Positions 48,921 through 52,864 of a stretch of 64,000 bases of DNA are shown here, one piece after another; positions within the stretch are counted from its first letter, which is position 1; every line of letters begins with the position of its first letter. Position numbers and translations under genes: made by a program. A model generated the notes under the pieces. That model saw only the letters and a list, made by a program, of their open reading frames with translations. It ran no database searches and was not told where the DNA came from. Source of the stretch: Chloroflexota bacterium (GTDB taxonomy: Bacteria > Chloroflexota > UBA11872 > VXNJ01); assembly GCA_965261345.1 (NCBI GenBank), contig OZ253449.1, positions 1,984,001 through 2,048,000 on the forward strand. The letters run 5' to 3'.

Positions 48921-50287
48921 CTAGACCGCTCCGAGGGCGCTTAGCAGCGCCGCGGCCTTGTGCTGAGTTTCTTTGAATTCGGCCGGTGGCTGCGAATCGG
49001 CCACAATCCCGCCGCCGACGTGGAATTGCCACTCCCGTCCCTCGCTGTATATGGTCCGGATCGGGATCGAGGCGGAGACGTATCCGTCAAATCCGACCTG
49101 GACGATTGCGCCGCAATAGCCGCCGCGGGTTACCGGCTCCAATTCGGCGATTATTTCCATCGCCCGCAATTTGGGAGCGCCGGTCACCGATCCGCCCGGA
49201 AACATCGACCTTAGTAGATCAAGCGCCCGCGCGGGCCCCGAAACCCGGGCCGAAATAGTCGACTCCAAATGGTGGATCCGCTGATTCGTAACGATCTGTA
49301 ACAGCCGCTCTACGGCAACTGATCCGGGCTCGGCGATTTTTCCAAGGTCGTTTCGCAAGACATCGACGATCATTACGTTTTCGGCTCGGTCCTTGGGGCT
49401 CATGACCAATTCTTCGGCCAGGACCTGGTCGGCGACCGGGTCCTCTCCACGGGGCCGCGTCCCCTTGATCGGCCGGGTTTGCACGACCCCTTTTTGGTGG
49501 AGCAACAGCAATTCGGGTGAAGCTGAAATTACCGATTGGCCGCGCTGACTCAAAAATGCGGCCATCGGATCGGTTCCCGACCGCCGCAGGCGCAGGAAGA
49601 CATTCCAGGGATCGGCACCCAGACGGCCCGATAGGCGCCGGGCGATGTTGACTTGGTAGACATCGCCGGCGGCAATGTAACGCTGAACCTGTTCGACGGT
49701 TTGCATGTAGCCGGAACGCGTAAAGTCGCTCATTGCCCCACTTGAACGGATCGAAGGAATCGCCCGCCATCTGGTTCGGAGCGCGGTTAGCAGGCTGCGA
49801 CGGTCAGACAGCCCGGTCTGCGGTCGGGGGTCGGCCCCGTTTACGATCAGCCACGTCTCGCCTTTGCCCTCGTCGTGGGCGATCACCCAGCCGTAGAGCC
49901 CGAAGCGCATCAGGTGACGCCCCGCCGGTGCACGGCAGTTGCGGACCCGATCAAAGCAATAGCCGGCCTCGTATTCAATTTGCCCGATCGCCCCGCCCGA
50001 AAACGGAACCGGGCCGAAAGATACCTCGCCGTGGCCGGCAAGGACCAAGTCCGACAGCTGGGCAAGCGCGTCGCCTTCGGGCTGTCCCGGCAGCCAGTCC
50101 ACCCAGGCGTACGGGTCGGCGGTTAGATAGCTGTGCCCGGTAACACCATTGGCGATAAACGCCAGGCCCGGCAGGTGACGGAGGTCCTCGGCGATCAACT
50201 CCAGCGGAGCCGACGACCGCAAGCGCTCGTATTGGATTAACCGCAGGCGCCGGCGGTTCGGGTTCGCCCCGGAAGGATCAATGGGCA

Positions 50288-50288
<1 letters not shown>
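48921..50288 (-). CDS. pabB: Chorismate-binding enzyme, aminodeoxychorismate synthase component I-like
   Basis: GDVYQVN, SPEL, RPIKGTR, KDRAENVMIVD, PGGSVTGAPK, GGGIVADS. Confidence 0.85.
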
Positions 50289-50361
<73 letters not shown>

Positions 50362-50435
50362 GTGAGGGTTGTTAGGGAGGTTCAAGCATACTAATTTGAG
50401 CCGCCGGACCACCGGCGTTAGGGATTTGAAGGGCT

Positions 50436-50443
50436 AATGCAAT
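50436..50443 (+). repeat. 8-bp target-site duplication AATGCAAT (left copy)
   Basis: Identical to 51928-51935; abuts the TIR. Confidence 0.88.
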
Positions 50444-50462
50444 GGGGCTTATATACCTAACT
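50444..50462 (+). repeat. Terminal inverted repeat, tnpB 3' side
   Basis: GGGGCTTATATACCTAACT. Confidence 0.88.
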
Positions 50463-50486
50463 AGCACAAGGCCCGTCGGCATACAT

Positions 50487-51634
50487 TTACGCCGCCTCGC
50501 CGGCGGCCGCGGGCATAACCCCGCCCGCGAGAGCCTTCTGAAGGATGTTTAAGGCCGCGTTGTGATCGCGGTCGATATCCAGACCGCATTCACATACGTG
50601 CCTTCTCACCTCCAGGCTCTTTCTGACCATCGCACCGCAACTGCTGCAGCGCTGCGAGGTGTTTCTGGGGTTGACGAATACCAGCTCCCTACCGGCGCTC
50701 TCGGCCTTGTAGAGAAGCTGACTGATGATCCGTCCCCAGCTTTGTTCCAATATGGCGCGGTTCAGTCCGCGCTTTCTGGCCCCGCCCGATCTGGTCATGG
50801 CCTTTTTGTCCAGCTTCTCCACGGCTATATATCCGTAGCACCGGATCAAATCGGTCGTTATCCGATGGCACTGGTTCCTGTCCCTGATCCGGGCCCGCTC
50901 ATGCGCGTTGGCCAGGATGCGACGGCGCTGCCGGAAGCGGCGGCTGCCCTTCTTGCATGCCGACAGGCGCCGCTGCTTGCCGACTATCTCGGCGCGGTCC
51001 ACCTGGCGGCGCTCGATCTTTCGACCCTCACTGGTGGTGATGCGGGCCATAACTCCCATGTCCAGGCCGACCTTGGCCGGGTCATATGGCAACGGCTCCA
51101 TCTCAACCGCGTAGGCCCGGTTCACGGCTATGCGCCGTCCCCGGAAGGCAATACGGATCGTCTTCAGGTCTTCTGAAGGCGGCAGCGCTCGCCCGGTCCG
51201 GATCTTAATCGCCGGCAACCCTTTTACACGGACTGCGTAACCGCGCCCGTCGGGTCTGACCATCGCGGGCGTAGTTTGTTCCAGCTGGATCGTGCGGTAG
51301 CGATGATGCGGCTTATAGCGCGGGAATCCTGGTTTCTCACCGTTCTTACAGCGGCGGTAAAAGGCCTGCTTGGTGCTTTCGGCGCGAGTGAGCGCACCGC
51401 GCCGATATCGACCGACAGGGTCCCCCAGAACGGGTCCTGGCTGCGGGTACGAGTGAACGCCTTCATGCGGTCGAACAGTGAATCGCTATTGCCGCATTCT
51501 TTGTAGGACCGGCGCCATTCTTCCAGTTCGGCGTTGTACAGCTCGGCGCATCCGGAGAGCACCTGGTTGAGCCGATCGCAGCCGCGGCGGCTCAGGAAGC
51601 CGCGCCGCTGGAAGGTGCGGTAGGTGGTCGGCAT
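50487..51634 (-). pseudogene. tnpB: TnpB RNA-guided endonuclease with one frameshift near 51402 (about 382 aa if repaired)
   Basis: N-terminal YRTFQRR..LYNAELEE; joined frame QAFYRRCKNGEKPGFPRYK; RuvC VGLDMG, IAVEKL, DRDHNAALNI; Zn finger TSQRCSSC..CECG. Confidence 0.9.
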
Positions 51635-51908
51635 TTGCCGGTGTTCTATATATATGGGTTCTATTTTTAAGGCCTTAAGTATATATGGTATGTTCGATAT
51701 ACTGTTTGCGCCCATGCGTTCGTTGATATCGTCGGGCGGGCGAGCAAGCAAGACGGCACACCGCCCTCCTCTATGGAAGGCCCTTTACGATCTCGGCGTC
51801 AATTTCCGCTGGTAGTGGGTCTGGTCGATCGGTGGCTGCGATTCGGCGCCGACAATCATGCGTGTGTGAAACCGGCGGGGTTCATTAAGATTCAGTCGGG
51901 TTGGATCA

Positions 51909-51927
51909 AGTTAGGTATATAAGCGCC
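51909..51927 (-). repeat. Terminal inverted repeat, tnpB 5' side
   Basis: AGTTAGGTATATAAGCGCC on the + strand. Confidence 0.88.
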
Positions 51928-51935
51928 AATGCAAT
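51928..51935 (+). repeat. 8-bp target-site duplication AATGCAAT (right copy; contains start ATG 51929)
   Basis: Identical to 50436-50443. Confidence 0.88.
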
Positions 51936-52864
51936 CAATAGACCGCTGGCGCGGGTCGTTGCTGGGACTTGCCTGTGGGGACGCGTTGGGGATGCCAGTC
52001 GAGTTCGCCGATCCGCCGCCGAGCGAACCGGTAATCGACATGATGTCGGGCCGCTCGCGCGGGCAGAAAACTCCCGCTGGCGAGCCGGTTGAAGCTCCGG
52101 CCGGGAGCTGGACGGACGACACCGCAATGACTCTTTGCCTGGCCGAAAGCCTGCTGGAGTGCTCCGGCGTGAACCTGCCCGATCAAATGCAACGCTATTG
52201 GCGCTGGGGTAACGAGGGCCACCTTTCAGCCACCGGGCAGGCATTTGGTATGGGGCCGACCGTCAAGGATGCATTGCGGCGATTTTCGGCCGGGCAAGGA
52301 CCCTGGGGCGATGCCGAAGCGTTGACCAACGGGTCGCTAATGCGGGCGGCCGCCCCGCCGCTTTTCTTTGGCGGGCGCCCCGATCTGGTCCGGGCGGCAG
52401 CAGAATGCTCCACCCCCACCCACTTACATCCGGTGTCCCAGGCCGCCTGTCAGGTTTTTGCAAATCTGCTGGCGATGGCGCTGGCCGGGGCCGGGCGACC
52501 GCAGTTGCTTTCAACCGGTGCCGGCAGCGAGGGCCTGGGTGGCCCCCTGCCTGGCCGGCTTGACCAGATCCTGTCCGGCGACCTGGCCGCGCGCTCAAGG
52601 GATGAGATCTCCGGCGCCAATAACGTCGAATGCACCTTAGAGGCTGCCCTGTGGTCATTTGCGACGACCAACGACTTTGAATCCGGCGCTGTCGTTGCGG
52701 TTGACCTGGGGCTCGATGCTGATACAACTGCATGTGTATACGGTGCCCTGGCCGGCGCCCACTACGGCATCGCGCAGGTCCCCGCGCGCTGGCTGAAACG
52801 GCTTTGCCGGCGAGAGTTGCTCGAACAATTTGCCGAGCGTCTGCATGCGGCCGCCAACGATTGA
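51929..52864 (+). CDS. ADP-ribosylglycohydrolase (DraG family)
   Basis: GLACGDALGMPVE, WTDDTAM, NGSLMR, PTH, LGLDADTT. Confidence 0.92.
   Translation: MQSIDRWRGSLLGLACGDALGMPVEFADPPPSEPVIDMMSGRSRGQKTPAGEPVEAPAGSWTDDTAMTLCLAESLLECSGVNLPDQMQRYWRWGNEGHLSATGQAFGMGPTVKDALRRFSAGQGPWGDAEALTNGSLMRAAAPPLFFGGRPDLVRAAAECSTPTHLHPVSQAACQVFANLLAMALAGAGRPQLLSTGAGSEGLGGPLPGRLDQILSGDLAARSRDEISGANNVECTLEAALWSFATTNDFESGAVVAVDLGLDADTTACVYGALAGAHYGIAQVPARWLKRLCRRELLEQFAERLHAAAND

Follow-up and report, generated by a model that had tools for sequence, protein, structure and literature searches.

A 1484-bp element carrying a tnpB gene in a Chloroflexota genome (2.39 Mb in a single contig, 61.6% G+C) is best explained as a non-autonomous transposon that belongs to an IS1595-type lineage (DDE, cut-and-paste) and carries an OMEGA module, tnpB with its omegaRNA scaffold, a reading to which we assign a probability of roughly 85%. 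The element occupies positions 50444-51927 of the 64,000-nucleotide stretch of DNA analyzed here (the window), and it is a 1.5-kb tnpB cassette without a transposase gene. A preliminary description of this DNA had proposed that a DDE transposon lineage recruited TnpB, and the proposal is supported by shared ends, by 20 copies of the gene, by target-site duplications, and by empty sites in relatives. The features of the element and its surroundings, in window positions, are as follows.

50288..50361, minus strand: tRNA-Cys(GCA), left neighbor, outside the element (ARAGORN; Rfam tRNA, 69.5 bits)
50420..50443, minus strand: predicted guide segment, the flank past the element end, its first 8 nt being the duplication (from TnpB biology)
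50436..50443, no strand: target-site duplication copy 1, AATGCAAT, abutting the repeat at 50444 on the outside
50444..50462, plus strand: terminal inverted repeat, tnpB-3' end, GGGGCTTATATACCTAACT (sequence comparison, motif scan)
50444..50660, minus strand: omegaRNA-like scaffold that overlaps the 3' end of tnpB and extends into the inverted repeat (20-copy alignment, covariation)
50487..51410, minus strand: tnpB C-terminal frame, 307 codons and stop, with RuvC D/E/D residues and a CxxC...CxC zinc finger
51396..51634, minus strand: tnpB N-terminal frame, ATG at 51634, its join to the C-terminal frame broken by a 1-nt deletion
51635..51700, minus strand: upstream block, ATATATACTT...CATA...GGGC-ATG, conserved among copies in the alignment; presumed promoter or 5' UTR
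51772..51931, minus strand: end module of about 160 bp, common to other transposase-less cassettes with the same end type
51909..51927, minus strand: terminal inverted repeat, tnpB-5' end, GGCGCTTATATACCTAACT read inward
51928..51935, no strand: target-site duplication copy 2, AATGCAAT, abutting 51927 on the outside and containing the hydrolase ATG (51929)
51929..52864, plus strand: ADP-ribosylglycohydrolase gene, right neighbor, outside the element (Pfam PF03747, 2.4e-63)
51936, minus strand: candidate TAM base, a G directly 5' of the duplication at the tnpB-upstream end

The inverted repeats, the 8-bp duplication abutting both of them, and tnpB as the only recognizable gene between them had all been reported in the preliminary description, and each was confirmed. 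The two 19-bp ends are identical at 18 of 19 positions (one mismatch to the reverse complement of GGGGCTTATATACCTAACT), and a scan for this 19-mer motif allowing up to three mismatches found the two element ends and no third site across the 64-kb window (0.00 expected from 100 shuffles). The two copies of AATGCAAT, at 50436-50443 and 51928-51935, match at 8/8 bases. A 9-bp duplication was ruled out, as the two copies are preceded by different bases, the 3' copy by the C of the repeat and the 5' copy by a G. Open reading frames and Pfam searches leave tnpB, on the minus strand, as the sole recognizable gene within the 1484 bp, with matches to OrfB_IS605 (PF01385, 5.8e-11) and Cas12f1-like_TNB (PF07282, 4.1e-23); a sigma-70 promoter scan of the element returned 0 consensus matches. 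The IS1595 family is known to include passenger-carrying and non-autonomous members. The inverted repeats and 8-bp duplication of the window element match this family, and a DDE_Tnp_IS1595 transposase with a zinc ribbon is absent inside it; since tnpB is the only gene within and the transposase lies elsewhere in the genome, the element can belong to the family only as a non-autonomous derivative, not as an autonomous member. It falls outside IS200/IS605, as it has inverted repeats and a duplication and lacks TnpA, and outside IS607, as it has these same features and encodes no recombinase.

A six-frame search of 61 related genomes detected close tnpB copies (64-79% identity to that of the window) in the genus only, where five of the six other genomes hold them. 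The genus contains 20 full-length tnpB loci including that of the window, with the other 19 in sister species; 18 of these 19 are intact (381-383 aa), among them the G003 gene at L007:1270-2415, and one is truncated. Similarity stops at an identical base, ...TATATAAGCCCC, in all 20 copies. In 11 of the 20, an end of the same type is found on the 5' side beside an 8-mer that matches the 3' flank at 7-8 of 8 positions, and eight of these 11 duplications are perfect and all different: ATTGCATT, AAGTGAAA, TAATTGTC, CAATGAAA, GTAGATTC, AATCGTAG, ATAGTTTG, and AAATATAG. The main scan found no matching duplication for the other nine copies; one of them (L022) was resolved later, with a 7/8 duplication and its 5' end 4.5 kb away due to an IS21 element nested inside, and eight remain. 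A frameshifted copy (L030) has AAATCATC on both sides, an 8/8 duplication. Altogether, duplications are found in 13 elements including that of the window, nine perfect and four at 7/8, and all of them differ in sequence. The expectation that other copies would share the end type and carry different 8-bp duplications was thus borne out, as was the expectation that tnpB homologs would be flanked by inverted repeats: the genus copies have ends of the same type, sitting in IS1595-type ends rather than in ordinary IS200/IS605 or IS607 ends. Some ends within the family are degenerate, matching at only 12 of 19 positions.

Amino acid identity between the tnpB copies ranges from 64 to 98% and is mostly below 90%, which also holds within one genome. 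By this divergence the copies are old, and the divergence of copies within a genome gives no sign of recent movement. A 3-kb insert in the copy of genome G005 was considered as a candidate partner transposase and ruled out, as the insert is an IS21-family element (IstB, and an IstA with the domains rve and Mu-transposase C) nested in the 5' non-coding part of the cassette (L176, G005:C23:79700-84500), which it stretches to approximately 4.5 kb. Neither tnpB nor an IS1595 transposase was found in genome G002. This genome does contain a 170-bp match to the 5' end module (G002:C1:1774775-1774942), to which the window module at 51772-51931 is 80% identical, and a solo 5'-type repeat with G at -1 (G002:C1:1285857-1285869, L065); both look like remnants of lost cassettes.

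An intact IS1595-family element of 2448 bp lies within the genome that the window comes from (G000:2210000-2212447). Its ends, GGGGATTATATATTTAACT and GGGGCTTATATACTTAGTT, are each 16/19 identical to the window end, the 8-bp duplication AATGCAAC is found on both sides, and it encodes a 323-aa protein with DDE_Tnp_IS1595 (PF12762, 2.5e-35) and Zn_ribbon_IS1595 (PF12760, 1e-9) domains, along with two open reading frames without Pfam matches; the transposase maps to G000:2211445-2212413. It is thus an autonomous element with ends corresponding to those of the tnpB element, and the earlier assignment of the ends and the 8-bp duplication to the IS1595 type is borne out by the same end core on transposase-bearing IS1595 elements. 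The 13-nt core of the ends, GGSGMTTAYATAC, has 19 matches in the seven genomes of the genus versus 0 in a reversed control. A search of the class for relatives of the IS1595 transposase gave matches in 45 of 98 genomes (E <= 1e-70). Both ends were within reach at six of 30 transposase loci in the class; each of the six has ends of the GGGRMTTATATAC type and is flanked by a perfect, AT-rich duplication of 8 bp; the remaining 24 showed no end pair by strict criteria, a test limited by flanks of 1.5 kb. Elements of this kind also carry other cargo in the window's own genome. The element at G000:1292593-1295048 (L080) has IS1595-type ends and the duplication AAAACACT, and it encodes a 640-aa DUF2207-like membrane protein but lacks a transposase gene. 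Over its first 155 bp it matches the end module of the window element at 51772-51931, on the tnpB-upstream side, at 79% identity. This shared module suggests an exchangeable cargo slot. Also in this genome is the 3' part of a decayed tnpB, with a related repeat still at its end (G000:1137507-1138121).

We propose that an IS1595-family transposase supplied from elsewhere would bind both GGGGCTTATATAC-type ends of the cassette, and that the cassette would be inserted by an 8-bp staggered cut into AT-rich 8-mers; mobilization in trans is what we infer from the distribution of ends and genes. That some other transposase moves a cassette with DDE-type ends appears unlikely, and this possibility has certain observations in its favor. 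No IS1595 transposase was detected by Pfam model or protein query in genomes G001 (80% complete, eight tnpB hits) or G005 (90% complete, seven tnpB hits), which together account for most of the perfect tnpB-element duplications, and tnpB and an IS1595 transposase were never found in one element among those examined. Both genomes, however, are draft assemblies, in which repeats are often missing, and as the tnpB copies are old the partner transposase may since have been lost. Also against another enzyme is the fact that the rare end core and 8-bp AT-rich duplications flank six transposase-bearing IS1595 elements, one of which is in the genome of the window.

Several further observations were made on the IS1595 elements of this group. 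Nearly the same 8-mer hosts three elements: AATGCAAC at G000:2210000-2212447, AATGCAAT at window 50436-50443, and AATGCATC at G003:2132216-2132223, which may reflect a preferred target or mere coincidence. The possibility that these near-identical duplications (AATGCAAT, AATGCAAC, and A/GATGCATC) are element sequence was ruled out, as the 8-mers of other copies are unrelated. The last of the three sites belongs to a composite-like unit of 13.6 kb (L081, G003:C1:2131700-2146400; ends at G003:2132224 and 2145871), which is flanked by AATGCATC and GATGCATC. Its borders are formed by two IS1595 copies in inverted orientation, one of them truncated, with 40 terminal bases that are identical between the two; its cargo includes an N6-methylase/MmeI-like protein of 980 aa, a Ser/Thr kinase, and part of an IS256-type transposase. 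In the class, many genes for IS1595 transposases contain one in-frame stop codon (TAG, TGA, or TAA) at comparable positions (e.g., G345:C1:884844-885791 and G451:C1:1822012-1822953), which could be a recurring break or programmed read-through.

At the other end of the cassette, tnpB runs nearly to the transposon end, with only about 25 nt between its stop codon and the inverted repeat. The last 240 nt of the 20 copies were aligned on the tnpB sense strand (alignment A2), and the consensus structure contains 37 pairs with 98.6% of cells paired and eight pairs with compensatory changes. None of 500 shuffles reached the observed values, and slid controls were 34-52% paired; the single-sequence fold of the window scaffold has a z of -2.68. 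The two best-supported hairpins lie in the final codons of tnpB, and beyond the gene the scaffold reaches into the inverted repeat. A structured omegaRNA is thus predicted at the tnpB 3' end, reaching the end of the transposon, and judging by the covariation its scaffold is under structural selection. An Rfam search of 50200-52100 at E up to 1 returned the neighboring tRNA only and no omegaRNA family. As the scaffold is at the usual place of a TnpB omegaRNA, the guide would come from the flank and start with the duplication. The transcript would extend from the 3' part of tnpB across the inverted repeat and on into the flank, and TnpB with this omegaRNA would cut the unoccupied allele, favoring retention or copying of the element as in IS200/IS605.

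More distant relatives of the protein were collected as an outgroup of 80 metagenome loci (30-40% identity, the only relatives found in the metagenome scan) and four genome loci (32-42%); a single-protein search of genome contigs returned only three loci. The end motif occurs in two of these 84 loci, in both cases away from the gene ends, and no inverted repeat above the shuffled control was found in the 50 outside loci with enough flank, in a scan that misses ends as degenerate as the weakest of the family (12/19). An IS200-type Y1 TnpA lies directly upstream in 12 outside loci, while no resolvase or IS1595 transposase was found among the 76 of 155 upstream ORFs that were scanned, these being the longer and nearer ones. 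With outside relatives lacking such ends and 12 of them beside a Y1 TnpA, the gene seems to be descended from IS605-type TnpBs and to have been captured afterward by an IS1595 shell. In a large protein collection, there are about 66 clusters at least 59% identical among those listed, and every cluster with a named organism is from Chloroflexota; the next tier, at 47-53% identity and 398 aa, was not found among 401 sampled genomes of the phylum.

Because its nearest relatives outside the genus are TnpBs of the Y1-TnpA (IS605) type, the gene comes from that world, and one could argue that an ordinary IS200/IS605-type tnpB once landed inside an IS1595-derived miniature element, making the pairing functionally meaningless. 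We regard such an accident as extremely improbable. The 20 copies all terminate at one common position, diversification of the family to 64-98% identity has left reading frames intact and the ends in place, and there is no trace of IS605 ends or TnpA inside the element. The short distance from stop codon to repeat, and the covarying RNA scaffold that enters the repeat, also speak against it.

Empty alleles of the insertion site, whose existence in relatives had been anticipated, are found in all five congeners that hold both flanks. In these genomes the gap between tRNA-Cys and the hydrolase gene is 77-96 bp. In G002, AATGGAAT occurs once at the empty site, with CAATTGAGCG next to it; this is the counterpart of AATGCAAT followed by CAATAGACCG in the window, and thus one copy of the target. 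The empty sites show only that the element inserted, nothing beyond. The insertion took place between tRNA-Cys and the hydrolase start codon after the species split from its sequenced relatives. The insertion cut the ADP-ribosylglycohydrolase gene off from its former upstream region, and the ATG at 51929, which falls within the second copy of the duplication 2 bp past the inverted repeat, was recreated by the duplication.

Read in the direction of tnpB, the base that directly precedes the 5' copy of the duplication is a G in 11 of 11 copies with verified duplications and in five of five further 5'-type ends. This amounts to 16 of 16 clear ends, which together with four of six less certain ends gives a total of 20 of 22. 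On the 3' side, the corresponding base is a G in only three of 11 copies, and the ends of the six transposase-bearing IS1595 elements have a G in two of 12. The inverted repeat always terminates in C in the 20-copy alignment, and the duplications follow a roughly symmetric pattern, A-W-W-N-N-W-W-N. The G at -1 in 16/16 ends is an indirect hint of TAM-dependent guided cleavage by TnpB, and although it rests on one base we prefer, tentatively, to read the invariant one-sided G as the possible footprint of a very short TAM, consisting of one base or YG. A two-fold symmetric transpososome should not produce a one-sided G, whereas a TAM read by TnpB with a guide starting with the duplication would; alternatively, the transposase may have a preference that depends on the orientation of these particular ends. 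On the TAM reading, TnpB in an IS1595 shell would still cut the empty allele with a guide beginning with the variable 8-bp duplication, and the C that ends the inverted repeat would shield the occupied site; the transposase itself shows no preference for G, so only insertions beside a G would be retained. If true, the G footprint would represent the relaxed target recognition that is proposed, in the part of a 2026 review concerned with this point, for prokaryotic OMEGA systems in DDE transposons (PMC13565253). The TAM requirement would then be unusually small, which would make it relevant in practice to compact genome editors. Of the features reported here, only the one-sided G is new to us in not having been seen described before.

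The tnpB gene of the window copy itself is split. Alignment with intact relatives places a 1-nt deletion in a glycine codon just after 51400, between ...SVDIG and RGALTRAE...; neither this frameshift nor the presence of the hydrolase ATG in the duplication had been recorded in the preliminary description. The residues D192, E273, and D357, which we take to be the RuvC D-E-D triad, and C330/C333/C348/C350, which we likewise take to form the zinc finger, are invariant in the 16 intact copies aligned and present in the window frame. Contigs from four public sequencing runs were compared with window positions 50200-52200. Contig X1 shows no difference from the window and may be where its sequence came from. 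The extra G behind 51400 that restores the frame was found in contigs of the three other runs, from two studies: contigs X4 and X5, of another study, span both junctions and carry the G but have 11 nt missing at 50679, and contig X9, of a third study, has the G together with an in-frame 15-nt deletion at 51528. The window-copy tnpB is decaying, with different lesions in different strains. No empty allele or joint across the element was found among the contigs of the four runs, indicating that the insertion is fixed in the sampled populations.

Such decay could suggest that TnpB no longer serves the transposon and is instead domesticated or regulatory (TldR-like), or a passenger without a guide-RNA role. 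According to the passages of the 2026 review that deal with DDE elements, excision by a DDE transposase leaves a double-strand break, so that such an element has less need for restorative homing (PMC13565253), which would also fit this explanation. We nevertheless consider this explanation very unlikely, as the RuvC residues and zinc finger are invariant, the RNA scaffold is under structural selection, the gene has kept its place at the extreme end of a mobile cassette, and the asymmetric G beside the duplication fits TAM-dependent action.

A comparison of the window family with described TnpB systems shows both shared and distinct properties. The preliminary description held that prokaryotic tnpB normally travels in IS200/IS605 or IS607 elements, a statement that is outdated: in the text of Altae-Tran et al. 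2023 PNAS (PMC10691335), six DDE-associated TnpB branches (DDE-1 to DDE-6) are described, all with inverted terminal repeats and with the TnpB 3' end within 250 bp of the transposon end. The same text describes solo TnpBs between ends nearly identical to those of transposase-bearing elements, which its authors take as mobilized in trans. The window family shares the position of TnpB within inverted terminal repeats, with a 3' end about 45 bp from the element end versus the 250 bp or less reported there, and it likewise has solo copies with the same ends as transposase-bearing elements, implying mobilization in trans. The two differ in the partner family, which is IS630 as named in that text, or ISL2, IS630, and IS1031 according to the sections of the 2026 review that list partners (PMC13565253), and IS1595 here. 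IS1595 is not named as a TnpB partner in the text of the 2023 study, and in its supporting information the family is mentioned a single time, for comparison; its Additional Files and Tables S1/S2 may differ in this respect (PMC10691335). A literature search combining TnpB and IS1595 returned no paper on that association, judging by titles and the openings of abstracts.

Like IS1595 insertion sequences, the window element has ends starting with GG, an 8-bp duplication, AT-rich targets, and cargo beside or replacing the transposase. Unlike them, it lacks a transposase, its cargo is an RNA-guided nuclease, and its RNA scaffold overlaps one of the repeats. The tnpB-only IS1341-type elements of the IS200/IS605 family also have a length of about 1.3-1.7 kb, a single tnpB, a 3' omegaRNA, and dependence on a transposase in trans; in contrast to the window family, they possess neither inverted repeats nor a duplication, and the nearest IS605-type relatives of the window TnpB are only 30-42% identical. 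Eukaryotic DDE transposons carrying Fanzor share a TnpB-family nuclease placed between inverted repeats with target duplications. The parallel to Fanzors drawn in the preliminary description therefore holds insofar as a TnpB is found here in a TIR-bounded DDE element, but the idea is not new, going by the text of the 2023 study (PMC10691335). In Fanzor elements the short, fixed duplication (TA, TTAA) is said, where the 2026 review treats it, to be part of the TAM, with its 3' copy in the RNA scaffold (PMC13565253). The 8-bp duplication of the window family varies, and would thus belong to the guide; the only fixed flanking base is outside the duplication.

In conclusion, the design of a TnpB housed in a DDE transposon with solo copies moved in trans has been known since 2023, and the IS1595 partner case is a further member. 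It indicates that an IS1595-type DDE transposon can carry an OMEGA nuclease module as cargo in a free-living bacterial lineage, and it is a well-documented case, with a resident partner transposase, many independent insertions, and empty sites. The family also bears on the rarity of TnpB with DDE transposons, a rarity that may be explained by inflexible TAM recognition according to the relevant part of the 2026 review (PMC13565253). It offers intact TnpB genes of 381-383 aa together with a defined RNA scaffold.
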